64,000 nt of DNA from NCBI GenBank assembly GCA_020631905.1, contig JACKGQ010000001.1, forward strand, positions 549,854 to 613,853. Direction: 5' to 3'. This stretch comes from Candidatus Nomurabacteria bacterium (GTDB lineage Bacteria > Patescibacteriota > Saccharimonadia > Saccharimonadales > VXPC01). This document shows, piece by piece, positions 15,018 to 44,159 of this stretch. Numbering within the stretch: the stretch's first letter is position 1; every line of letters begins with the position of its first letter. The position numbers and the translations under genes were made by a program. The notes beneath the pieces were generated by a model. That model did not search any database. It was given only the letters and a program-made list of their open reading frames with translations, and had not been told where the DNA came from.

Positions 15018-15046
15018 TTGACTATATATTGTGTTTATGGTAATAT
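15018..15046 (+). promoter_or_regulatory. Strong sigma70-type promoter for the ABC-F leader
   Basis: TTGACT (15018-15023), 17-nt spacer, TAATAT (15041-15046). Confidence 0.6.
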
Positions 15047-15081
15047 CTTAATTAATCATATAAAAAGGAGTTATTACACCG

Positions 15082-15105
15082 ATGATTTACCAGATCAACA
15101 GCTAA
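15082..15105 (+). CDS. Candidate regulatory leader peptide (MIYQINS)
   Basis: ATG 15082 is preceded by AAAGGAG (15064-15070). Seven codons then TAA, positioned between the promoter and the terminator hairpin upstream of an ABC-F gene. Confidence 0.45.
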   Translation: MIYQINS

Positions 15106-15162
15106 TTCACACCAACAGTGTAGCTTTGCTATTGATCTATATCATCTAACCCCTTTTTCTTT

Positions 15163-15211
15163 AACCGAGCACGGTGTGAGTCGCTGACAAACATACAAGT
15201 GCTCGGTTTTT
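15163..15211 (+). terminator. Intrinsic terminator / attenuator in the ABC-F leader
   Basis: Perfect 10-bp stem AACCGAGCAC (15163-15172) / GTGCTCGGTT (15199-15208) followed by a T-run to 15211. The alternative pairing TCACACC (15107-15113) with GGTGTGA (15173-15179) could act as an antiterminator. Confidence 0.65.
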
Positions 15212-15225
15212 GCGTTGGAGGCAGT

Positions 15226-16686
15226 ATGCTCGAACTTGCACATATCTATAAAACACTCGGAGACAAACTAATTCTTCAAGATATTAACCTCGGTATCGAC
15301 CATGAGGTTGTTGCTCTAATTGGCAAAAATGGCGCCGGTAAATCTACATTATTGCAGATTATACTTGGCCAGATTGAGGCCGACGAAGGCACCGTAAAGT
15401 ATCGTGGTGCAGTCGGCTATGTCCCCCAGCATCCACAGCTTGCCAATACTGTAGGAGGCTGTTTTGGCTCGGTCGAGTCTTGGCAAGCCGATATTGCTAT
15501 GGCAGAAGTTGGCCTAGAAAAGTCGTTAACTTTCCCCACGTCTAAGCTAAGCGGTGGTCAAAAAACCAAGCTTGCGCTAGCTATGGTTTTGGCCCAAGCA
15601 CCACGACCAAGTATTTTGTTGTTAGACGAACCAACCAACAATCTAGATGCAACCGCTTTACGATGGCTAGAAGACTATATAAAACATTTCAAAGGCCTGG
15701 TAATACTAGTGAGTCACGACCGGTCGTTTATCAACCGCACATGCACCAAAGTATTACTACTTGAGGCAACAAAGCTAACTATATATAAGGGCAATTACGA
15801 TGATTACAAATCTCAAAAAGAGCTAGAGCTACAACATCAATTGCTCGAGTATCAATCAAACCTCGACGAAAAGAAAAGGCTCAATAGCTTACTCCAAGCC
15901 AAAAGTCAGCAGATGCAAGCAACCAGTAATCAGTGCTATAACAAGCTCATGGGCATACCCAAAATAAGTTTTAATACCAACAAGAATGCTTCGCAAACTA
16001 ACACAGGCCGGCAAATCAAAGCCATAAATTCACGTATCGAGCAGCTTGCAAGTCTAGAAAAACCAGACATAGCCAAAGATTATCTGCTCGAACTAAATGG
16101 CGCCGTGCGCGGTGGTAAGTTGGTGGTTAAGCTCGACAATATTAACGTAGATTTCCTACCCAAAGTTAACAACTTTTGTCTCGAGATTCGTGGTCAGCAG
16201 CGAGTTGTAGTAGTTGGTCCAAATGGTTGTGGCAAGACAACTCTGCTGCGAATAGCCCATCGAAGCATCACTCCTAGCAGTGGTGTGGTTGTTGTCGGCG
16301 CAGGCATATCGATTGGTTATATCTCACAAGAAGTTAGCGGACTCGATTTTAGCTTATCGTCGTTCGAAAACTTGCTTCAGTCAAACTCAGACAGAACGGT
16401 TATCCATCGCCAGGCGCGTGCACTCGGTCTAGAAGCAGCTGCTCTTGGTCTAAAACCAAACGAGTTATCGCGTGGCCAGCAGAGTAAGCTTAGTTTTGCC
16501 AAACTGCTACTCGGCAACCACGATCTACTAATTCTAGACGAGCCAACTAACCACTTAGACATCGCTACTCGGGATAGCATCGAACATGCACTCGAGCTAT
16601 ATCGTGGGGCTATGCTAGTCGCCTCTCACGACGAATACTTCTTAGAGTCTATTGGTATTACTCAGACAATCAGCTTGATGTCTTAA
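15226..16686 (+). CDS. ABC-F family ATPase (ARE-like ribosome-protection type, two ABC domains with linker)
   Basis: Two Walker A sites (GKNGAGKST, GPNGCGKTT), two signatures (LSGGQ, LSRGQ), about 80-aa Q/K-rich interdomain linker, and no TM domain. Start moved to ATG 15226 (GGAGG SD 4 nt upstream), because the track start 15199 lies inside the terminator stem. Confidence 0.85.
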   Translation: MLELAHIYKTLGDKLILQDINLGIDHEVVALIGKNGAGKSTLLQIILGQIEADEGTVKYRGAVGYVPQHPQLANTVGGCFGSVESWQADIAMAEVGLEKSLTFPTSKLSGGQKTKLALAMVLAQAPRPSILLLDEPTNNLDATALRWLEDYIKHFKGLVILVSHDRSFINRTCTKVLLLEATKLTIYKGNYDDYKSQKELELQHQLLEYQSNLDEKKRLNSLLQAKSQQMQATSNQCYNKLMGIPKISFNTNKNASQTNTGRQIKAINSRIEQLASLEKPDIAKDYLLELNGAVRGGKLVVKLDNINVDFLPKVNNFCLEIRGQQRVVVVGPNGCGKTTLLRIAHRSITPSSGVVVVGAGISIGYISQEVSGLDFSLSSFENLLQSNSDRTVIHRQARALGLEAAALGLKPNELSRGQQSKLSFAKLLLGNHDLLILDEPTNHLDIATRDSIEHALELYRGAMLVASHDEYFLESIGITQTISLMS

Positions 16687-21257: not shown

Positions 21258-21440
21258 TTATTCTACCCAGTCGGTGATCACTAGGTGGCTACCCTTGAGT
21301 TCGACAACAACTTTTTGGTGCTCTTTCCAGCCCAGCTTTTTTACAAAAGCTTTCGGCAACGTCAGCATATAGCTCTCGCCATCTTTACCAGTTTTTTGCA
21401 GTTTGCGAATGTTTACTTCACTAGATTTCTTATCGCCCAT
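21258..21440 (-). CDS. AbrB/MazE/SpoVT-family DNA-binding protein (antitoxin/regulator-like)
   Basis: 60 aa. LTLPKAFVKKLGWKEHQKVVVELKGSHLVI is a swapped-hairpin beta-barrel (AbrB/MazE) pattern. AAGGAGGGG SD upstream. Confidence 0.7.
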   Translation of the reverse strand: MGDKKSSEVNIRKLQKTGKDGESYMLTLPKAFVKKLGWKEHQKVVVELKGSHLVITDWVE

Positions 21441-21456: not shown

Positions 21457-21490
21457 GTTCAGATTATATAATCGATTATATAATCTGAAC
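21457..21490. repeat. 34-bp perfect palindrome (operator and/or dif-like site), left boundary of the cassette
   Basis: GTTCAGATTATATAATCGATTATATAATCTGAAC equals its own reverse complement (verified base by base). It contains two TATAAT boxes and lies 5 nt upstream of the AbrB-like gene's SD. Its core shares 23/28 positions with the palindrome at 28009-28036. Confidence 0.8.
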
Positions 21491-21567: not shown

Positions 21568-22272
21568 ATGAGTTTTGTAGTTAATCAGATTATTTCTTAC
21601 CGTGATCTGTGCAATGAAGAAGAGCAAGAACAGCTTCAGAGAGGTATGAATTTTGAATTGCGACCAGGCTATTCTGTAGTGTTAATGTCGGTCAAGCCGA
21701 ATGCGCCGTATGCAGACAGAATATCTGGCGATGGTCTTACTATCTACTATGAGGGCCATGATGTGCCGGGTGATAAGTTAAAAGAGTACGATCAGCCTTC
21801 AGCTAACCCTAGCGGCACACTCACTCAAAATGGTATGTTTTGCCACGCAATAGACCGGGCAAAGAAAACCGGTGACTACCCTCTCGTAAAAGTGTATGAA
21901 AAGTTACAAATGGGCATATGGACTTACCGTGGTTTGTTTGAGATACGTGATTATTCTTTCATCGAACGTGGACGCAGAAAAGTATTTGAATTTGTATTCA
22001 CCGTCACCGAGCAAAAACTCGAAGAGGCAGAAAAACATCGTGCCAAAAAAGTCATCGACCTCGAACAAACGCGTCAAATTCCTGGCAAGATCAAGCTAGC
22101 TGTATTTAAGCGTGACAAAGGAATGTGTACACAGTGTGGCGCCAAAGATAATCTGCATTTTGACCACATACTGCCCTACTCAAAAGGTGGCACTAGCCTG
22201 AAAGAAGAAAACATCCAGCTCCTCTGCGCCCGCCACAACCTCCAAAAATCCGCAAAAGTCGACACCTACTAA
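21568..22272 (+). CDS. SRA(YDG)-HNH modification-dependent (type IV-like) restriction endonuclease
   Basis: 234 aa. The N-terminal 150 aa follow the SRA pattern (GYSVVLMS..., YYEGHD, DQ...LTQNG..., PLVKVYEK...WTYRGLFEI...). The C-terminus is [22 protein letters not shown]...QLLCARHN (HNH). Confidence 0.75.
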
Positions 22273-23855
22273 TTTTTATCAAGCTCGTTGAATTTTTGCT
22301 GCATTGTAGGATTACCTCGTGTAAGCTTTTTGATTGTAAGGTCTTGTGCTTTATCGTTGGCAAGACGCAAGTTATTCTCACTAGATAACAACGCAGCTTT
22401 AGTTTTCTCCAGTTGCTTGATAGTTTTATCGATACCATCAATTGCCTCAGTAAATCTTCGTCCGGCTAGTTCGTAGTTTTTACCAAAGGCAAGTTTGAAT
22501 GCTTCCATATTTTCTTCAAAGTTAGTGATGTCGATATTTTGTTCCTGAATTGCAAGTAACTGTCGTTTTGCATCGACCGATTTGATGTTTGCGCTTTTAA
22601 GCATCGACACCAGTGGGAGGAAAAATTGTGGTCGAATAACATACATCTTTTCATATTTATACGACAGATCTACAATTCCCCTGTTGTATAGATCATTATC
22701 TGCTTCAAGCAAAGTAACAAGTACCGCGTACTCTAAGCCTTTTTTCTTGCGATCTTTGTCTAGCTTTTCTAGATGGCTATCTACTGTTCGTTTGTTTGCA
22801 GATACATCTTGTTCGTCTTTCATTTCAAACATTATTGAAATAATCTCGGTTCCATTGGGTGAATCGTAGTCGCGGTAAATATAGTCCCCTTTGGTCCCTT
22901 TGGTCTCATCTTCTTCTTTGATGGCTTCGTTATCTTTTTCGAAGTAAGCATATGGAAATTGACCGGCACGGACGGCGTTGAACTCATTTTGGCAATGTTG
23001 CTCTAGTGTTTCACCAACAAGCTTTACTGATAACTTTGCTTTCATATCTTTCAGCCGCTCGATAGTATCCTCACGATCCTTCAGCTGCGTTTCATATTTG
23101 TCTTTAAGTGATGATTCTAGTAGCTTCTGTTCAGTGTCCTTGCTTTCGAGCTTATTTGTGAGTTCATCTCGTTCTTTTTCTAGTTTATTGACCGCTTCAG
23201 TCAGTGCTAATTTGTTCTTAGTTTCGGACGATTCTATTAATGCCTTAAGGTCAGCAATCTCAGCGTCTTTTTCTACTTTGAGTTTTAGTAGCGATGCAGC
23301 CTTTTCTGCACGCAGTTCAGCAATCTCAGTTTCTTTTTTGGCAATATCTTGCTGCAGTGATATTTTTGTTTGCGATTCGACTAGCTTAACTTGATCTTCT
23401 TTTTCACGAAGTTGAGATTTTAGCTCGTCTCGCTCCTTCTCTATCTTATTTAGCGCTTCTGTGACAGCTAGTTGTTTTTCGGTATCTTTCGCTTCGAGTT
23501 TATGTTGTAAATCTGCTATTTCTGCATCTTTTTTAGCAGCTTCAGCTTGTAAGATGTTTTTTGTAGATTCTTCGGCAAGTTTTACCGCGCTGTCTTTTTC
23601 GGATTCGATCGTTTCTAGTTTTTGTAACAGTTTAGAAATCTCGGTGTTTTTGTCGGCTAGATCTTCCTGGAGCTGATTTTTAACTTTCTCTTCTGCTAAT
23701 TCGATTGCGCTTTGCTTGTCCTTTTCTGCTGCAGCTAGGCGATCATGTAATTCTTTATCAAACTCGGTGTTGCGAACCTGCTTTAAGATATCAGCATAGC
23801 CTGCTTCATCGATTTTGAAAGCTTTTTTGCAGTGCGGACAAATTATTTCATTCAT
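22269..23855 (-). CDS. DUF2130-type protein: N-terminal zinc ribbon, long repetitive coiled coil, C-terminal PD-(D/E)XK-like motif
   Basis: N-terminus [24 protein letters not shown] is typical of DUF2130, followed by about 250 aa of E/K-rich coiled coil with internal repeats. C-terminal GDYIYRD...[11 protein letters not shown] is nuclease-like. Start set to ATG 23855 (GGAGG 5 nt upstream), an 8-nt overlap (ATGAATGA) with the upstream ATPase gene. Confidence 0.7.
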
Positions 23856-25473
23856 CTGAACCTCCAAAGTACTCATCAACCTGATCCATTATCAATACAA
23901 AGTTCTTGAATTCCTCTGACGCTTCTTTCTTATTGCCGTGCTCGTCAAAGCATCCCGTCTTGAATTGTATTTTGTTTTTGCACTTTTTTACATCTATTGC
24001 GCACATTTCACAATTCCCGCACGGACGGTATTTGTCTCGGATATCATTTGCCTTTAACTGCAAGAGCTTAAATGAGCTAAAATCTTCAGAATCTTTTTCC
24101 ATACATTTTGATTCTGCCTCACCGTAATCGTAAATTGCTGCTACTTTTTCAAGGCCAGTATCTTGCGCCATTTGTAGATATGGTCTGAAATTTACATAAC
24201 CCTGAACTCCATACCCAAATACATCGTAAGGTAGTAGTTTGTCACATTCATTGGCCCATTTTCTTACTAAGCCCACGTCTTCTTGACCTTCTAGCATAAG
24301 TACGCTGTTGGAGAATAAAATTTCTTTCGTAGCTTCATCAAGTATAAAAGGTTTTTGCCATTCCTTCTCTGAATTATCGATTAACTCGCTATATTTAGAA
24401 GTTGAGTCGAGCCAGTGTAATTTTGTTCCCTCTTTTTTACTAAATGTTGCTCTCCCAATCTTTGCTCCATTTACTAAATCAGTCCAGTTTGCAAAGTAAG
24501 GTGAATGGGTGACTAATATTATTTGTTCTCTTTGGGTAATTACACGCAGAGCATTTAAAAGCTTTTTTTGTCCCTGGGCGCTTAAGGAGAGTTCTGGCTC
24601 ATCTATCGTAAGGTAAAATGGCTTTTTGTGTTCTGATTTTTCGAAAGATGCCGCATAAGCCTGTATCAATGCTATTATCACGGCGCGCTGTAAACCGGAT
24701 CCTTTTGTATTGATTTCTGAATCGTGGCTCCCGTCTTTGACGATTGTCTTAACATTTTTTGTGAGTGCATTCAGGTCTGGTCTTTCAGGTACAAAATTTA
24801 TTCCAACTTCACCATAAAATTCTTTAATATAACCCGATACTTTCTCGGATACATCCTTGCTCTTCTTCTCAAATATAGAGTTATCTTCGAAAAGATCTTT
24901 AAACGCATCCTTTAGGTCGTCATATCGCTTTTCTTCTTCTATTTCTTTAAAAATTTTTCCGAGCAAGTCACCTAAAATAGATGTGGTGCCATATTTTGTT
25001 GCTTCATCTGTTGTGTATTCAGGGTCTATAGTTCTCATTTTCATCCACGATCCGAAAGGCGCATCAATGCCTGAACTATTCTTATAGGTTCCATCAGATT
25101 GTTTTAGAAATATTTTACTAATGCTCTCTTCATCAGACCTCTTAGCATGCATAGACCCATCTAGCACTGCACTTTTGTACGCAGCCTGTTTGTTTTCTGT
25201 TACATAGGTCTCGATCGATTTTTCAAAATCAGAAGAAATAAATTCGACTTCAATTGATGTAGTGTCATCCGTCCCATGAGTTTTGTCATCCCCTGAAAAT
25301 TTATTGAATAGTGCATCTATAGCACGACATGCATTAGATTTACCCACATTATTCGGTCCGACCACTATTGTGAGCCCACTGCCATGTTGTCCATTGGGAA
25401 CTGCTAGGTCGAATTCTTCATTCTTTATAGAACGATAGTTACTAATTTTTACTTTTTTTATGTATACACTCAT
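23848..25473 (-). CDS. ABC/OLD-family-like ATPase with degenerate Toprim-like C-terminal region and Cys cluster
   Basis: 541 aa. Walker A GPNNVGKS (39-46), signature-like GSGLQR (258-263), Walker B LTIDEPE (D291 E292), H-loop VTHSP (H323). Then [11 protein letters not shown] (E395) and [10 protein letters not shown] (D448), which are Toprim-like, and C485-x2-C488-x2-C491...C498...C508. The ATG directly abuts the upstream stop (TAAATG). Confidence 0.7.
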
Positions 25474-27324
25474 TTAGGAATTGCCCTTTTTGTTAAGATA
25501 ATTCTTCAAAGAAGGACTAGTAGTGTATACATAACAACCCTTCATCCCTCTAGTCATAAGAACTTTATAGATGTTGCGAACGAGGCGATTTAGTTCTTTT
25601 GGATCGTCCTTTAGGCCTTTTTTGCCTTCACCATCTTTGTAATTTTCGTGACTAGTTACGAACGTCATAGTTTCTGGATCGTACTGCAAATCATTGCCAA
25701 TAATTACACCTACATAGTCGAATTCTAGACCTTGAGAGGTGTGTATACACCCTACCTGATGAATGCCTTCGTCATCTTCTGCCCAGGTGGTGCCAACTTT
25801 CCTTGAGTTCCAAGGCATGCTGAAATCAAATTCAGGTATTGATACGTCTTCTACTTCGGCGTCGGGGTTGCCTTCTCTAGCGCTCGTCCATTTCCAGGCA
25901 TAGCCTGCTAGCACTCGTGCTTTGAAGCCTGCATCATGCTTGGCCTTTATTGCCCTCCGCATCTCATTTGGGTCATCAAAAACTTTGAACTCAAAATCAC
26001 CATCTTCCCAGCCGTCGTAGTTAGCCGTTTCTTTGAGCTGAAAAACATGGTTGAGCCAGTTGATATAGCCTTCTGCTCCTGAGCAGCGGAACTGTGCCGT
26101 TAATTCTATCTCATGTATTTCTGCGTCATATTCATCGGCAAGTCTTTTCAGCTCTTTTACTGAGCCAATATCATCTGGTCGGATGGCTTGATCGTCGTCA
26201 ATGAAAAAGATCGATGTCTTGCCAGCCCGAATAACGTCTTCAACCTGGTTTATGCCCCTGTACATAAACGCACCTTTTCTTTTCAGTCGATGTGCCTCGT
26301 CAATAATAAGTGCATCAAACGTGTTCGGGTCGGCATCAACAAATCCAGCTGAGCCTTTAAATAGATTCTTTACCCTTACTTTTGAATGCTCTTTTGCTAA
26401 TCTTTTGACCATCACATCACGAAACGAAGCGTTTGGTGCTACAAATACCGCGTTGAGCTGGTCTATGAGCAATTGACCGAGTAAATTCACGGATATAACT
26501 GACTTACCAGTACCTGGTCCGCCTTTTATAATTACCACTGACTTAGTTGACGTATTTCTTGCTACTGAACGAGCTTTTTCAAAAGCAACTTTTTGCTCGT
26601 CTAGTAGAACAAATTCTTGGTTTCCTTCAAATAACCCAGAGACGTGATCAATTAATTTTTTGCTTGGCTTAACTTTGCCAGACTCTATTTGATATAAAAT
26701 TTCTGTGCCTTTGCCGTATTTTACAAATTTGGCTAAAAAGCTTTCTAATTTCTCCTGGTCGTCTCTGAAGTATATGGGTGATTGTTCGATTACATCTAAG
26801 TATATTTCCGCAAGAAGTGGCTCTGGATCTTTTTGCTCGTAGTTATGTAAATAAGCGCAAGAGTACGCTGAGATAGTTCCTTGAGAAATATTTTCGTTAA
26901 AATCAAACATAAACTGCCTATAAGATGTTGCCTGGTAGCTCGGATGGGTTGTTTCTCGCGTATTGCCACCAACGAACGTGCTTACGACACCTTCACCGTA
27001 TGCAACCTCAGCTTTTTGCCATTGTTTAAGTTCTACAATTATGAAGTTGTTATTACCGTGTTCATCCTGGCCGGCGACGATAAAATCTATACGATTTGAT
27101 GTAAGAGGAATCACGTATTCGATCAACACGCCGCAGTCATCAGCAATGCCTGAGCGCCTGACGACTCGCTCCATTTGTGGCAAAGAGTTGATGTATGCAC
27201 TTCGTTCTGCTGGTGGTATGTTTCTGCCAAGTTTTGTTCGAAATGTACTTTCAATTGACTGAAGAATTTTACCCGAATCTACAGTTTCACAAAATTCTTT
27301 AACTGTAGATTGGTAAAGTATCAT
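25474..27324 (-). CDS. DUF2075-type protein: N-terminal PD-(D/E)XK nuclease motif + SF1 (Schlafen-group-like) helicase/ATPase
   Basis: 616 aa. The N-terminal pattern ...ERSAYINSLPQMERVV... is typical of DUF2075. Also E69...D80...E98-L-K100 (IDFIVAG...FIIVELKQW), Walker A GGPGTGKS (268-275), Walker B LIIDEAHR (D342 E343), and C-terminal SQGLEFDYVGVIIG. The ATG overlaps the MazG-like stop (ATGA). Confidence 0.8.
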   Translation of the reverse strand: MILYQSTVKEFCETVDSGKILQSIESTFRTKLGRNIPPAERSAYINSLPQMERVVRRSGIADDCGVLIEYVIPLTSNRIDFIVAGQDEHGNNNFIIVELKQWQKAEVAYGEGVVSTFVGGNTRETTHPSYQATSYRQFMFDFNENISQGTISAYSCAYLHNYEQKDPEPLLAEIYLDVIEQSPIYFRDDQEKLESFLAKFVKYGKGTEILYQIESGKVKPSKKLIDHVSGLFEGNQEFVLLDEQKVAFEKARSVARNTSTKSVVIIKGGPGTGKSVISVNLLGQLLIDQLNAVFVAPNASFRDVMVKRLAKEHSKVRVKNLFKGSAGFVDADPNTFDALIIDEAHRLKRKGAFMYRGINQVEDVIRAGKTSIFFIDDDQAIRPDDIGSVKELKRLADEYDAEIHEIELTAQFRCSGAEGYINWLNHVFQLKETANYDGWEDGDFEFKVFDDPNEMRRAIKAKHDAGFKARVLAGYAWKWTSAREGNPDAEVEDVSIPEFDFSMPWNSRKVGTTWAEDDEGIHQVGCIHTSQGLEFDYVGVIIGNDLQYDPETMTFVTSHENYKDGEGKKGLKDDPKELNRLVRNIYKVLMTRGMKGCYVYTTSPSLKNYLNKKGNS

Positions 27325-27677
27325 TCTTCAGCTAGCTCCGTGTATTTTTTATGGTTGCCTTTGGCTTTTTCGACGGAATATTTGGCTTCGTTTTTTTGCA
27401 TCTTGGCTTCGAACACCTCGACGATGTCGATGTTTAGGTCGTGGGCCATGAGTAGTATCCAATACAAGGTGTCGGCCAGCTCTTCGCCTATGTCGGCTTT
27501 GTTATCACGCACGTGTTTTTCAATTTCTTCTGGGCTCTTCCACTGAAAGTGCTCTAGCACCTCCGCGGCTTCGAGCACTAGTGACATCGCCAGATCTTTG
27601 GGGTTATGAAATTGTTTCCAGTCGCGAGCGTCCCTGAAAGCAATCACTCTATCTTGTAGCTTTTTTAAATCACTCAC
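27321..27677 (-). CDS. MazG-like all-alpha nucleoside triphosphate pyrophosphohydrolase (DCTPP1/YpjD-type, single domain)
   Basis: 118 aa. RDWKQFHNPKDLAMSLVLEAAEVLEHFQW...IGEELADTLYWILLMAHDLNID carries the ExxE...ExxD metal-binding motif pair. GTG start, with a TAGAAT box (27687-27692) 9 nt upstream (apparently leaderless). Confidence 0.85.
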   Translation of the reverse strand: MSDLKKLQDRVIAFRDARDWKQFHNPKDLAMSLVLEAAEVLEHFQWKSPEEIEKHVRDNKADIGEELADTLYWILLMAHDLNIDIVEVFEAKMQKNEAKYSVEKAKGNHKKYTELAEE

Positions 27678-27733
27678 AATAACTCTATTCTACCCTGTTT
27701 GGGGGATTTTTCCATCTTAGGGGCCCGGGATAT

Positions 27734-27899
27734 CTCCATCGTAAACTAACATCTTTGGGAAAAGGGTAACTAAAAGAGATAAGACCGAGGACCAGTCGAA
27801 GAACAAACTGTTCAAGACCGCATCTGCGTTCCGCAGTGCTTATCTAATTTTAGTTAATTTTAACCCAAGGACCTGTTAGTTTATGGGAGCGGGTTTTTT
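27734..27899 (+). ncRNA. Candidate structured RNA: about 155-nt imperfect rod-like hairpin ending in a U6 tract (class unknown; a MITE-like inverted repeat is an alternative)
   Basis: Nested helices: 27742-27751/27874-27883 (10 bp), 27755-27759/27864-27868 (5 bp), 27767-27775/27848-27856 (9 bp), 27777-27783/27839-27845 (7 bp). Apical hairpins at 27801-27813 and 27820-27839, then GGGTTTTTTG (T-run 27894-27899) on the plus strand only. Confidence 0.4.
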
Positions 27900-27953
27900 G
27901 GTTACATTTTGACCTGTAGCAAAAAGTAACAAGAAGTCTGGCGAGCATCGCCT

Positions 27954-27977
27954 AAAACCTACCCCTGTACAGGTTTT
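27954..27977. terminator. Possible bidirectional terminator hairpin downstream of the helicase-nuclease gene
   Basis: AAAACCT (27954-27960) / AGGTTTT (27971-27977) with a 10-nt loop. The A-tract/T-tract symmetry allows function on both strands. Confidence 0.35.
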
Positions 27978-28008
27978 CTACTCTGTTTTGATCTGTTTTC
28001 CATTTAGG

Positions 28009-28036
28009 TAGTTTATATATTCGATTATATAAACTA
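28009..28036. repeat. 28-bp near-perfect palindrome with 11-6-11 architecture (dif/Xer-site-like), right boundary of the cassette
   Basis: TAGTTTATATA TTCGAT TATATAAACTA, 26/28 self-complementary. It overlaps the stop codon of the helicase gene. TTATATAAACT (28025-28035) matches 10/11 of the B. subtilis dif XerD-arm TTATGTAAACT as I recall it. Confidence 0.7.
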
Positions 28037-31000
28037 GGCCAGTAGGTCGTGGATGAATTTTTGGCTGCCGGTGGCTGATTGGTCGTAGCCCGAGATATCT
28101 GGCAGGTCTAAATTGACTATCTTTTGCCAGACGGCCTGGATGAGCTGCTTGATTTGAGCTTCTTCTTTTGGGTCGAAGGCTAGTTCGAGAGCTTGTAAGA
28201 TATTGCCATCGGCATTGCCTGCTGGCTCGACAAATTCGAGCCGAGCCGACTCGACCCTATAGCCACGCCAACTTGCACTACCTTCGATAAGCAACTTGTA
28301 CATGTACAGCTGCTGCTTGTAGGTTATAGATTTGATATCAGTCCCCCACTTTTTGAGCGGTTTGCCGGTTTTAAAATCGGCAATTCTAACCGTTTTGTTG
28401 GCTTCGTCGACTTCTAGTCGGTCGATCTTGCCGCTTAAATGGGCTTCGCCCAGGTGCACGCCTTCGGCATAAAAGTTAACCTCGGCTTTGGCCGACTTTT
28501 TGAACATGTCATGCCTGGCGCTTAGATACTTTTTGAGTGCGGCTTGGCCTTTGCCAAGAGCCCGCTGCTTGTCGGCTTGGCTTAGGTAGCGGCGATTGAG
28601 CTCGCGCTGGTAGTGATCGGCGACTTGTTGCTGACTTGGAGATTGCTTGGCCGCGACTTGGTTGGCATACCACTCGAGGGTGTTATGGATAGCTGTACCA
28701 AACTCGCCACTGGCGCTTGGCGCCTGCGGAAAGCGCAGTAAAGTTTGCACCAAAAAGGCCTCTGGGCCGGAATACTCGAGATTGATAAACGAGTTGAGAT
28801 GGGTTGGGCTCATTTGGTATTTTTTGAGCCGATCTGCCAGCAAGCTTTTAAAATCGGCTGGCAAGTGTACTTGGCCGGCTTGCCAGAGAGTTTCGATGTC
28901 GACAGCGAGCTGGTCGGCCGATACTTCTGTAGTTTGGATCTGCTGCGCACTGGCCGGCAAATAACTAGATACACCATCGGCTTCGGCCAAATACTTGAGT
29001 GGGCTGGTGGCTTTGCCGTTATCTTTGGTAGCGTGCGAAGTAATGTAAAGGCCTTGTTTGGCGCGAGTGATAGCCACAAAGAACAACCGGCGGCGCTCGT
29101 CGTCGGACGAGCCGCTGTAGCGAATTTGTTTAAGGTTGGGCGGTAAGGCTAGTTTATTGTTGCTTTGGCTGGCACTGCCCCAGACATCGTCGTGAGCCTG
29201 CAATATAAAGACATGTTCGAACTCTAAGCCTTTGGCGCTGTAAACAGTCATTAACTGCACCGAGTTGGCGGCTTGGGCGATCGGGTGGGTGTTGGTTAGG
29301 CTGGCCTCGGCGGCTTCGTACATATCAAAAAAGTCTAGAAAATCTTGCAGATTGAGTAGCTTGTCGGTGCTGACCTGGTGCTCACGCAGTTTGGCCCGAA
29401 TAACGCTAAGGTGCGCGATGGATTCGTAATATTTAAGGGCGTCGAGACTGCGCTCCTGGCTGGAAAAATAATAAGCTTTGAGTGGTGCAAAGTGTTCTTG
29501 ACCATCGATAACCACTGGGCTTGTGCCGGCTAGCTGGTCTAGAGTTAGCTCGAGTGGTGCGCTAACAGCGTAGGTGCTAAGCACCTGATAGAACATGATT
29601 GCCGACTCTAGCACAGGATTTTCGGCGGCGATTTCGGGCCAAGATCTAACCTCTTTGCGCTTGGCATACTGCCAATTGACTTGCCAAATGTCGCGGGCTG
29701 GAATCTGCCAATAAGGCAAGCTAAGCACTAGCGGCATATAGTGATTTACTAGGGTTGCATCTTGATTGATAAGCGCCTGAACCAGCTGGGCTGCCAAACG
29801 CAGACCACTGACAATCTCGGTTTGCAAGATGTTTTCGCGTTTGTCGTAGGTAATCGGCACCTCGCGCTGTTTTAAGAATGGCACCATGCCTTCGAGAATC
29901 TTGTGCTTTGGGGCAAGTACGGCGATTTGGTCGGGCCGAGTACCTTGCTTGATTAACGAATCGATCTGGTTTGCAACCCATGCGTATTCGCTGGCCGAGG
30001 CGGCAAACTCGTGGCGGCCAACTTGGGCAGTTTTTGGCAAGCCCTCTGCCCTAGCCTCGAGAACCTTGGAGATGTCTGCAAACTGACGATGCAAACGATC
30101 TTCGATCTGTTCGGATATGTTATGAGCCACATGCAAAATATCGGCATGTGAGCGATAATTTTCGGTGAGGTTGATTACCTTTACGTCTACAAAAGTTTCG
30201 AAAAAATCTTTCATGTTGCCAACATGGGCACCCTGGAATGCAAAAATAGCTTGGTCGTCGTCGCCGACAGCCATGATGTTTGGCCGGCCTTCGTGCACTG
30301 GGTGATCGGCGATGCGCTTGACTAGGTCGAATTGCGACGGGTTGGTGTCTTGGAACTCGTCGAGCAAGATAAATTGGTAGCGTTCCTGCAAGTTGTAGCG
30401 GAGCTCGGGGTTAGATTTGAGCCCTTCGATGGCGCGCAGGATCATATCGTCGAAGTCGTAGCTAGCCGATTGTTTGAGTGCCTCTTGGTAGTCTTGGTAG
30501 ATATTGGCTAGCTCGAGCATTTTTTGACTACGCAAGCGTTCGGTTAGACAGAAGTCATCTTGGTCGTCTTTGTGGAGCCAGTCGTTTTTCCAACTTGTAA
30601 GTGGCTTGCTAGAATTTGCGGCTTCGGCCTGTTGATAGGCTTGGTCGAGTTCGCTGGCGGCTAGCTCGACCAAACTGCCGCTAAGCTCCGACAAACCATC
30701 GCGGAGTTCGGCATATTGCCCGAATAGCTCGGCCTTTTTGCGTGACATGCCGCCTTTGGCATTGACTGCACTATCGATGATGTCTTGGGCTGCCTCGATC
30801 TGGGTGAGATTACTATTGGCTAGTGCACGCAGATCGTCTGGTGTGATCATATATTGTTTGAGGTCGCTGATGGTATCGACAAGGCTTTTGACATAGTAGC
30901 GGGCACCAAGCAGCAAGCTATCGAAAGGCAGCTTGGCCACGATTTTTTCGACGATTTGAATCTGGCTGAGCTCGTCGATTGGCCGCTCCATGCGAATGTC

Positions 31001-31345
31001 GTCGCTACGCTCAACAGCAATTGACTGAAAATGTTCGGCGTAGTTTTTGATAATGTCGCTACCAAAACTGTGATAAGTACTAATGGTGACGTTGTAAGCG
31101 GCGTCGCCTATTAGGCTGCGCAACCGCTGGCGCATATTGCTTGCACCGGATTCGGTAAAAGTAAGGCACAAGATGTTGCGGGCGTCGGTATCTGTTTGCT
31201 GCAAGATGTTGGCCACCCGAGCGCTGAGTAGCTGGGTTTTGCCAGTCCCTGGTCCGGCCAAAACCAATAGCGGGCCGTAAATATAATCGACCGCTTCGGC
31301 TTGAGCTTGGTTTAACTTAACCTCTGACACGACATAATTATACAT
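28034..31345 (-). CDS. UvrD/PcrA-family SF1 helicase fused to a C-terminal RecB-type PD-(D/E)XK nuclease (AddA/AdnB-like)
   Basis: 1103 aa. Walker A AGPGTGKTQ, LLDEFQDTN, the helicase motif set, and C-terminal GKIDRLEVDE...IADFKTGK nuclease motif. Confidence 0.85.
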   Translation of the reverse strand: MYNYVVSEVKLNQAQAEAVDYIYGPLLVLAGPGTGKTQLLSARVANILQQTDTDARNILCLTFTESGASNMRQRLRSLIGDAAYNVTISTYHSFGSDIIKNYAEHFQSIAVERSDDIRMERPIDELSQIQIVEKIVAKLPFDSLLLGARYYVKSLVDTISDLKQYMITPDDLRALANSNLTQIEAAQDIIDSAVNAKGGMSRKKAELFGQYAELRDGLSELSGSLVELAASELDQAYQQAEAANSSKPLTSWKNDWLHKDDQDDFCLTERLRSQKMLELANIYQDYQEALKQSASYDFDDMILRAIEGLKSNPELRYNLQERYQFILLDEFQDTNPSQFDLVKRIADHPVHEGRPNIMAVGDDDQAIFAFQGAHVGNMKDFFETFVDVKVINLTENYRSHADILHVAHNISEQIEDRLHRQFADISKVLEARAEGLPKTAQVGRHEFAASASEYAWVANQIDSLIKQGTRPDQIAVLAPKHKILEGMVPFLKQREVPITYDKRENILQTEIVSGLRLAAQLVQALINQDATLVNHYMPLVLSLPYWQIPARDIWQVNWQYAKRKEVRSWPEIAAENPVLESAIMFYQVLSTYAVSAPLELTLDQLAGTSPVVIDGQEHFAPLKAYYFSSQERSLDALKYYESIAHLSVIRAKLREHQVSTDKLLNLQDFLDFFDMYEAAEASLTNTHPIAQAANSVQLMTVYSAKGLEFEHVFILQAHDDVWGSASQSNNKLALPPNLKQIRYSGSSDDERRRLFFVAITRAKQGLYITSHATKDNGKATSPLKYLAEADGVSSYLPASAQQIQTTEVSADQLAVDIETLWQAGQVHLPADFKSLLADRLKKYQMSPTHLNSFINLEYSGPEAFLVQTLLRFPQAPSASGEFGTAIHNTLEWYANQVAAKQSPSQQQVADHYQRELNRRYLSQADKQRALGKGQAALKKYLSARHDMFKKSAKAEVNFYAEGVHLGEAHLSGKIDRLEVDEANKTVRIADFKTGKPLKKWGTDIKSITYKQQLYMYKLLIEGSASWRGYRVESARLEFVEPAGNADGNILQALELAFDPKEEAQIKQLIQAVWQKIVNLDLPDISGYDQSATGSQKFIHDLLA

Positions 31346-43806: not shown

Positions 43807-44000
43807 AGTTACCTCAAATTAAATTTGATACATTATCACTATTGTTTATGGCAATAGCAAGCACAAGCAAATTACAAATAAGTTTGTAGTAAAAGAAGAT
43901 GCTAACGATTTTTTACTCGGGGACAGTATGAACGCACAATGGCATTCTAGCTAAAGCTATGATGCCATCTACTAACTTTTGTACAAATTATAAATTTGAC

Positions 44001-44026
44001 AAAAGTCGAGCTGCCTAGGGGCTCGA
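44001..44026 (-). terminator. Intrinsic terminator downstream of tRNA-Gln
   Basis: Minus sense: UCGAGC-cccuaggca-GCUCGA followed by CUUUUGUC (stem 44006-44011/44021-44026). Confidence 0.55.
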
Positions 44027-44085
44027 ATCCTCTCGCTGGGCGAGAAAACAAAAAGACCTAGGATAAACCTAGATCTTCTTGTTTC

Positions 44086-44159
44086 TGGCTCGGGGACAGG
44101 GATTCGAACCCCGGCTACTGGGACCAAAACCCAGCGTCCTACCACTAGACGATCCCCGA
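44086..44159 (-). tRNA. tRNA-Gln (anticodon UUG), CCA encoded
   Basis: Hand-folded cloverleaf: acceptor TCGGGGA/TCCCCGA, D-arm GTCT-AGTGGTA-GGAC, anticodon arm CTGGG-TTTTGGT-CCCAG (anticodon TTG), T-arm CGGGG-TTCGAAT-CCCTG, discriminator G, CCA. Confidence 0.9.

Follow-up and report, generated by a model that had tools for sequence, protein, structure and literature searches.

A long hairpin in the control region of a MazG–DUF2075 cassette of Candidatus Saccharibacteria as a possible MITE-like palindromic insertion

Miniature inverted-repeat elements (MITEs) are recognised by their terminal inverted repeats, a length of under about 500 bp and the absence of coding capacity. The MITEs and palindromic repeats known from bacteria include ERIC/IRU (127 bp) in Enterobacteria, Correia elements (ca. 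100–155 bp) in Neisseria and RUP (107 bp) in pneumococcus. Here, we describe a rod-like hairpin located at positions 27734–27899 of a 64-kb stretch of DNA (hereafter, the window) from a Candidatus Saccharibacteria chromosome (770-kb genome). Like ERIC/IRU, Correia and RUP, the window element is an imperfect palindrome of 100–160 nt that is non-coding, intergenic beside a promoter and probably transcribed; it also folds as a long RNA hairpin on either strand and is present here but missing from the related, diverged loci. Unlike them, it is represented by one copy, its candidate target duplication matches at 6/8 positions and no partner transposase is known, and the likeness concerns general features and not published MITE sequences. 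By this analogy, the hairpin may be a palindromic, MITE-like insertion specific to this lineage, located in the control region of a defence-gene cassette between the two copies of a duplicated promoter box and transcribed only passively, a reading to which we assign a probability of roughly 45%. The hairpin itself is real, and it is most likely a fairly ordinary, orphan representative of a type of element that is already known.

The core element is a 156-nt imperfect palindrome (27734–27889) that forms a rod-like hairpin with a three-way apex, in agreement with the original prediction of a rod-like structure at 27734–27899, where the sequence was as described. On the plus strand, the minimum free energy of 27734–27899 as RNA was −57.0 kcal/mol, compared with −35.3 ± 4.2 kcal/mol for 200 dinucleotide shuffles (z = −5.17; 0/200 as good), and the energies for the region 27724–27893 ranged from −57 to −62 kcal/mol. 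From the base inwards, the stem consisted of a CCCG/CGGG helix (27724–27727/27890–27893), a CUCC/GGAG helix (27734–27737/27886–27889) and further helices of 12 bp (27740–27751/27874–27885), 8 bp (27752–27759/27864–27871), 4 bp (27762–27765/27858–27861), 9 bp (27767–27775/27848–27856) and 7 bp (27777–27783/27839–27845). The earlier description of four nested helices totalling 31 bp (10 + 5 + 9 + 7) therefore captured the core correctly and undercounted the whole, as the stem with its CCCG/CGGG extension spans 27724–27893 and comprises 65 bp in all. The apex contained both of the small hairpins that had been described there (27795–27818 and 27819–27828). When aligned to each other, the two arms showed 49 matches, 6 mismatches and approximately 7 indel events. 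Terminal inverted repeats are present: the arms are complementary from 27734/27889 inwards, including a 10-bp perfect pair, TAAACTAACA/TGTTAGTTTA. In a GC-corrected scan of 8946 170-nt windows covering this stretch and nine related loci, the hairpin ranked approximately 23rd (residual z = −2.9) and was outscored by the tRNA-Gln region and the leader of an ABC-F gene. Thus, the hairpin is clearly non-random, yet other spots in the window are more structured.

The structure is not confined to one strand. The minus-strand fold of 27734–27899 reached −50.9 kcal/mol (z = −4.23), and a covariance model built on the hairpin scored 207.9 bits on the plus strand of the element itself and 36.3 bits on its own reverse strand. 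Since both strands fold and the model matches its own reverse, the element behaves as a DNA palindrome, which supports a MITE-like insertion. The same is true of its coding capacity, which is nil (no ORF > 32 aa in the hairpin slot). The flanks provide a further, ambiguous point in favour: CGGGATAT (27726–27733) and CGGGTTTT (27890–27897) abut the element on both sides as a candidate imperfect 8-nt direct repeat. These two octamers are identical at 6/8 positions and are also part of the stem, the left flank (27724–27733) contributing the CCCG at 27724–27727 that pairs with CGGG at 27890–27893 and lengthens the stem; the repeat is accordingly weak evidence for a target duplication and could be due to chance.

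The hairpin lies in a 356-nt intergenic region, with an AddA/UvrD-like helicase gene on one side and a low-GC cassette on the other. The helicase-nuclease of the AddA/UvrD type (28034–31345, minus strand) is a core gene with a GC content of 0.50, and GC drops to 0.39–0.42 over 22–28 kb, the extent of the cassette. The cassette starts with a MazG-like pyrophosphohydrolase as gene 1 (27321–27677), followed on the same minus strand by a DUF2075/Schlafen-group-3 (SLFN) helicase (25474–27324), an OLD-family ATPase-TOPRIM protein (23848–25473) and a DUF2130 protein (22269–23879). A convergent HNH endonuclease is encoded on the plus strand (21568–22272), and a 60-aa predicted DNA-binding regulator of the MazE/AbrB/SpoVT type on the minus strand (21258–21440; Pfam PF04014, E = 2.8e-7). 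Homologues of this regulator were found in two of the related loci, L011 (53% identity) and L048 (64% identity), and a 234-aa HNH protein also ends the cassette of locus L047. In relatives whose helicase is 68% identical, the next gene is a convergent ATP-synthase operon or a MIP gene and there is no cassette; because these helicases have other neighbours, the cassette is regarded as an accessory insertion. The same locus in NCBI and Logan assemblies was 99.985%–100% identical, with 0 differences inside the hairpin. No transposase, integrase, relaxase or Rep protein was found among the 43 ORFs scanned in the window, and the lack of a transposase or integrase there counts against a MITE-like insertion.

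The MazG and DUF2075 gene pair is widespread in CPR bacteria (ca. 60%–72% identity), with variable downstream partners. In the window and loci L008, L010, L011, L046 and L047, these partners were OLD plus DUF2130, SMC-like plus DUF2130, DUF4917, PIN or OmpA-like proteins. In many homologues of DUF2075, the protein is joined to a peptidase domain of the S24/LexA type (PF00717) as a fusion. A literature search found no paper on DUF2075 together with MazG, and the DUF2075 protein gave 0 matches in viral contigs.

Read along the minus strand, the control region runs from the helicase stop codon through an operator-like palindrome, a promoter box (P1), 260 nt of non-coding DNA with the hairpin and a second promoter box (P2) to the GTG start codon of MazG. 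P2 (27688–27715, minus strand; ATGGAAAA-N7-AAACAGGGTAGAA plus T) provides a −35 element TGGAAA and a −10 element TAGAAT (27692–27687) separated by an N16 spacer, and was the sole sigma-70-like site reported by a scan of 27300–28300. P1 (27976–28003, minus strand; ATGGAAAA-N7-AAACAGNGTAGAA) is a 75%-identical duplicate of P2 whose −10 element, TAGAAA, fell below the scan threshold. The box pattern had two matches in the window versus none expected. The MazG GTG (27677), whose position is supported by N-terminal conservation in three homologues, is located 9 nt past the −10 element of P2 and lacks a Shine–Dalgarno (SD) sequence; the MazG mRNA is therefore probably leaderless, as had been proposed from the TAGAAT at 27687–27692. 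The public annotation instead gives an 88-aa MazG from an ATG at 27587, and the 118-aa form from GTG 27677 is backed by residues 1–30, which are conserved in the three homologues. Both boxes also open with ATG, giving potential mini-ORFs of 13–14 aa, MEKSPKQGRIELL and MENRSKQSRKPVQG (27674–27715 and 27959–28003, minus strand), neither with an SD sequence. The first ends with a TGA that shares nucleotides with the GTG of MazG (GTGA).

The operator-like palindrome, TAGTTTATATATTCGATTATATAAACTA (28 nt; 28009–28036), overlaps the helicase stop codon, and P1 adjoins it 5 nt downstream. Its twin is a perfect 34-bp palindrome (21457–21490) just upstream of the regulator gene, and the operator core TTATATAWTCGAWTATATAA occurs in exactly two copies in the window (0.01 expected by chance). 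The same layout, in which twin AT-rich palindromes with two TTATATAA-type half-sites are placed at the cassette start and just upstream of a 55–60-aa MazE/AbrB-type gene at its end, was found in three CPR genomes and two cassette types, namely MazG–DUF2075 (the window, and L011:4316–4341/12123–12155) and an Eco47II-type restriction–modification (R-M) system (L048:7858–7880/9967–9989). The corresponding L048 operator is immediately adjacent to the promoter of gene 1 of that cassette. This arrangement looks like a predicted controller-protein circuit consisting of a MazE/AbrB-type regulator and twin putative operators. It is similar to controller (C-protein) regulation of R-M systems in having a small DNA-binding protein gene at the cassette end and matching putative operators at its own promoter and at that of the first cassette gene; this likeness concerns the surrounding architecture and not the hairpin. 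C proteins have an HTH fold, whereas the regulator in the window has a MazE/AbrB/SpoVT fold, with DNA binding predicted from its sequence. The controller–operator architecture is probably a more informative by-product of this analysis than the hairpin.

The bounding palindromes also bear on whether the hairpin could function at the DNA level, as a site that folds as a single strand or cruciform, such as an attC-like or other recombination site, or an origin that moves the cassette. The cassette is indeed bounded by similar palindromes, and the hairpin arms AACTAAC/GTTAGTT are each one mismatch from the attC core consensus, RYYYAAC/GTTRRRY. However, the bounding palindromes are better read as operators because the motif adjoins a homologous regulator gene in three genomes, the core match is imperfect, the 156–171 nt of the element exceed the known attC length of 57–141 nt, and no integrase, relaxase or Rep protein is encoded by the scanned ORFs. 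A role as such a site is therefore extremely unlikely, and an integron attC in particular was rejected on the grounds of its wrong size, the one mismatch per core site and the lack of an integrase among the 43 ORFs.

The right flank of the hairpin (27890–27899, plus strand) has the look of an intrinsic terminator, with the CGGG stem base followed by T6 (27894–27899). As previously noted, the U-tract occurs on the plus strand only, with no T run after the stem on the minus strand, and no plus-strand gene lies upstream, all neighbours being on the minus strand. The chance that a T6 run starts 0–4 nt after a given plus-strand position was 0.47% window-wide and ca. 1.3% by our own estimate for the T-rich cassette. 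Overall, chance alone is a somewhat improbable explanation for a U6 tract precisely at the base of the stem (ca. 0.5%–1.5%), and this position to that extent speaks against a MITE-like insertion. It is one reason for considering an independent plus-strand sRNA of ca. 180–200 nt, which would start divergently near P2, end at the hairpin and U6 and act in trans or as an antisense RNA on the cassette promoter region. The plus-strand fold is also the more stable (−57 vs. −51 kcal/mol) and has more G-U pairs than the minus-strand fold (4 vs. 1), although this 4:1 asymmetry is not significant. On the other hand, no sigma-70-like plus-strand promoter was found in 27300–27733, the element is missing from homologous cassettes, a 65-bp stem is far beyond the usual terminator size, and complementarity to other window sequences was limited to 11–13-nt chance matches by BLAST. 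No Rfam family was recovered either: in the Rfam 15 search of 27600–28100 at E ≤ 10, the best scores were 10–15 bits compared with thresholds of 35–290, a result that is in line with a MITE-like insertion. The proposal of an independently terminated plus-strand sRNA was thus not borne out, given the missing Rfam match, upstream plus-strand promoter and conserved pairing, with U6 and the non-significant G-U excess in its favour, and we consider such an sRNA unlikely.

These Rfam results, at both the gathering level and E ≤ 10 without a relevant match, agree with the earlier statement that the hairpin carries no motifs of known RNA classes. The element shares its overall length and rod shape with 6S RNA and retron msd, and its position beside defence genes with retrons and type III toxin–antitoxin systems; it differs from 6S, SRP, retron and type III antitoxin RNAs in that the 27600–28100 search yielded no Rfam match at E ≤ 10. 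Individually, 6S RNA was rejected because there is no large central bubble, a retron msr-msd because the cassette proteins have no reverse transcriptase domain, and a type III antitoxin RNA because there are no tandem repeats.

The U6 tract could also belong to an immobile terminator or insulator with a long stem, evolved in place, that would mark the cassette boundary and block antisense transcription into the helicase gene. The plus strand offers a GC-rich stem base, GGGAGCGGG, followed by U6, as in intrinsic terminators. A strong A/U-flanked terminator follows tRNA-Gln in the window, and long hairpins occur in Saccharibacteria intergenic DNA at L048:19214–19309 and L048:2024–2150. Unlike the usual intrinsic terminator, whose stem measures 5–15 bp, the hairpin has a 65-bp stem over 170 nt, with no plus-strand gene or recognisable promoter upstream and hence no plus-strand transcription unit ending there. 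Moreover, its apex is not a compact GC-rich hairpin, unlike the L048 and tRNA-Gln examples, and an origin in place leaves the absence of the element from every related locus unexplained. This makes a terminator evolved in place very unlikely.

Hairpins of 100–160 nt appear to be frequent in the intergenic regions of Saccharibacteria. L048:2024–2150 is a ca. 130-nt rod-like hairpin between infA and rpmJ in a ribosomal protein operon, and L048:19214–19309 is a ca. 100-nt extended-stem terminator after rpmG. Two other candidates that seemed structured in the GC-corrected scan, L032:7788–8000 and L008:11590–11730, were discarded as rods and proved to be short-hairpin sets or an ordinary terminator.

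The distribution of the hairpin was compared across four MazG–DUF2075 cassettes with readable upstream DNA (five loci; L008/L009, L010, L011/L012 and L047). In these cassettes, protein genes end 7–70 nt upstream of MazG, and no long hairpin was present in 4/4. The hairpin was also not found at the syntenic site in four relatives, in which the helicase (41%–68% identical) is followed by convergent atpC, MIP or other genes, and a metagenome search with the helicase C-terminus returned only relatives of 41%–45% identity, without the hairpin. The covariance model matched only itself in 377 kb of loci and three later loci. Because it was not found in homologous cassettes and the model had no matches, the hairpin is, judging by sequence comparison, not a conserved RNA part of the MazG–DUF2075 system. 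The suggestion that it serves as an RNA component of the neighbouring system was therefore contradicted, as the pairing is not conserved in homologous cassettes and the element is missing from all four. Its absence from these cassettes and from the relatives' sites is what a MITE-like insertion would predict, with the reservation that cassettes and relatives at ≤ 68%–72% protein identity are too diverged to serve as true empty sites. The only other assemblies with the locus (99.985%–100% identical) offer no orthologous empty site, which weakens the case for a MITE-like insertion, and their identity likewise provides no covariation data for an RNA reading.

In related cassettes, the duplicated promoter boxes bracket a variable slot, which contains one protein gene in L047 and three in L011. 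The promoter-like boxes, of 28–34 nt, are located at L047:4524–4554/5278–5308, L011:3846–3879/5593–5626 and 27688–27715/27976–28003 in the window; of the two copies, one directly precedes MazG or the gene immediately upstream of it, and the other is found one slot further upstream. The slot genes of L047 and L011 are on the MazG strand, and the same slot in the window holds only the hairpin structure. Judged from this arrangement, the hairpin occupies a normally protein-coding slot downstream of the operator-proximal box. No remnants of the slot genes of other cassettes were detected in 27678–28036 by tblastn, which is compatible with a MITE-like insertion, although simple transposon insertion does not explain the 28-nt promoter-box duplication around the slot.

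The arrangement of the boxes raises the alternative of a minus-strand structured leader or ncRNA under operator control, which would start from P1 near 27965, contain the hairpin as its largest arm and run into P2 and MazG. Such a hairpin might act in cis as an RNase III site or in the control of stability or translation of the SD-less MazG, or the whole unit might be an RNA gene in the variable first slot of the cassette. Several features are consistent with a leader: twin operators flank the cassette, with one directly upstream of P1; the equivalent operator in L048 abuts the first cassette gene's promoter; the boxes bracket protein genes in L047 and L011 and only this structure in the window; and P1 and P2 share their spacing, with the −10 element plus 9 nt and then G. 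In addition, transcription from P1 is predicted to begin where the closing helix has its 5′ end: GGGG (27965–27962) can pair with CCCC (27723–27720) to give a closed 250-nt multibranch, three-stem fold, in which the remaining non-coding slot (27900–27975) contributes two small hairpins. There is no terminator between the helicase gene and the slot on the minus strand, and the hairpin is therefore probably transcribed on that strand in any case. In contrast, the −10 element of P1, TAGAAA, lacks the final T (8/12) and was not called by the scan, the minus strand is the weaker fold strand with 1 G-U pair versus 4, and the element is missing from all other cassettes examined. No discrete minus-strand RNA is expected, because no terminator follows the hairpin there. 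On balance, an operator-controlled leader is unlikely. The narrower proposal that the 260-nt slot is an RNA gene, in which operator-controlled P1 drives a structured ncRNA that replaces the slot protein genes as an RNA regulator or sensor, is distinctly unlikely. A dedicated ncRNA under operator control would amount to a novel RNA component of a defence-like system; none of our findings supports this.

The clearest precedents for a MITE-like insertion were found in related DNA. Locus L011 (identical in L012) contains a 157-nt rod-like hairpin (L011:12227–12383; −75 kcal/mol, z = −6.1) that lies between the two copies of a 5-bp GCTAT duplication and interrupts the MazE-like regulator gene of the homologous cassette. 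Deleting 162 nt from L011 restores a 55-aa ORF that is colinear with the regulator of the window. A second element, L034:5821–5979 (identical in L035:3541–3699), is a 159-nt Y-shaped structured element (z = −8.9) between the helicase gene and atpC and is flanked by a 6-bp CTAGCG duplication. The corresponding site in L031 (L031:11301–11323), with the same synteny and 73%–80% nucleotide identity to L034, is empty, with a single CTAGCG in a 23-nt gap; because the same site is empty in L031, the L034 element is considered to be a MITE-like insertion. Elements of the same size and shape with 5- and 6-bp target duplications thus argue for a MITE-like origin of the window hairpin. However, no significant sequence similarity links the elements of the window, L011 and L034, their arm-wise local alignments being no better than shuffles, and each is single-copy in the DNA examined. 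Given this lack of similarity among three elements of 156–159 nt, the precedents show a kind of element and not a family.

Copy number counts against this interpretation. A BLASTN count had been proposed on the expectation that many copies would favour a MITE, and it revealed no second copy in the 64-kb window; none was found in ca. 450 kb of related loci either. The intergenic region had no BLASTN match to phage genomes, and two exact hairpin sub-sequences gave 0 matches in viral contigs. The terminal-repeat pattern TAAACTAACA-N105-135-TGTTAGTTTA had 6 viral matches and 13 matches in a genome collection that did not include the host's own genome, numbers near a rough chance estimate, and none of the matches had further similarity. 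A literature search found no paper on Saccharibacteria with MITEs. The MITE interpretation of the original prediction fared better than its sRNA interpretation, by analogy only, while the many dispersed copies that it envisaged were not found in the window or the ca. 450 kb of loci.

If the hairpin is MITE-like, it would be a non-autonomous palindrome mobilised in trans by a transposase encoded elsewhere. On the minus strand, RNA produced by helicase read-through or as a leader initiated at P1 would contain it as a stable stem-loop, with no terminator after it. On the plus strand, divergent or antisense transcripts would be halted at the stem base and U6 and so kept from running antisense into the helicase gene. 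In the case of the window element, mobility, transcription and any effect as a terminator or insulator are inferred. A MITE-like origin would add to the evidence for 156–159-nt palindromic insertions in very small CPR/Saccharibacteria genomes, of which there would be three sequence-unrelated examples. It would also mean that such insertions occur within the repressor circuit of a recurrent, uncharacterised MazG–DUF2075 cassette, where they could alter expression. As a weaker possibility, hairpin elements may insert repeatedly in the circuit that represses the cassette (in L011 into the regulator gene, in the window at the operator–promoter junction) and thereby de-repress it.

Other structured or repeated sequences were observed during the analysis. 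A search of the window with Rfam at the gathering level and with ARAGORN reported tRNA-Gln (44086–44159) only. Downstream of this gene, the minus strand contains a 280-nt highly structured stretch (43807–44085; z = −6.2) that comprises the strong A/U-flanked terminator and further hairpins and has no Rfam match. At 15041–15210, in the 580-nt gap before the ABC-F gene (15199–16686), the minus strand folds into a ca. 100-nt hairpin and a second hairpin over the ABC-F ATPase start; this structure has a GC-corrected z of −4.2, stronger than that of the 27734–27899 hairpin, and could be a leader or attenuator. In L048, the region 15928–16335 was rejected as a repeat element and consists of two tRNA genes; after them comes an exact 24-nt copy of a tRNA 3′ end that resembles an att site, and two independent short-read contigs (L049 and L050) break at this point.
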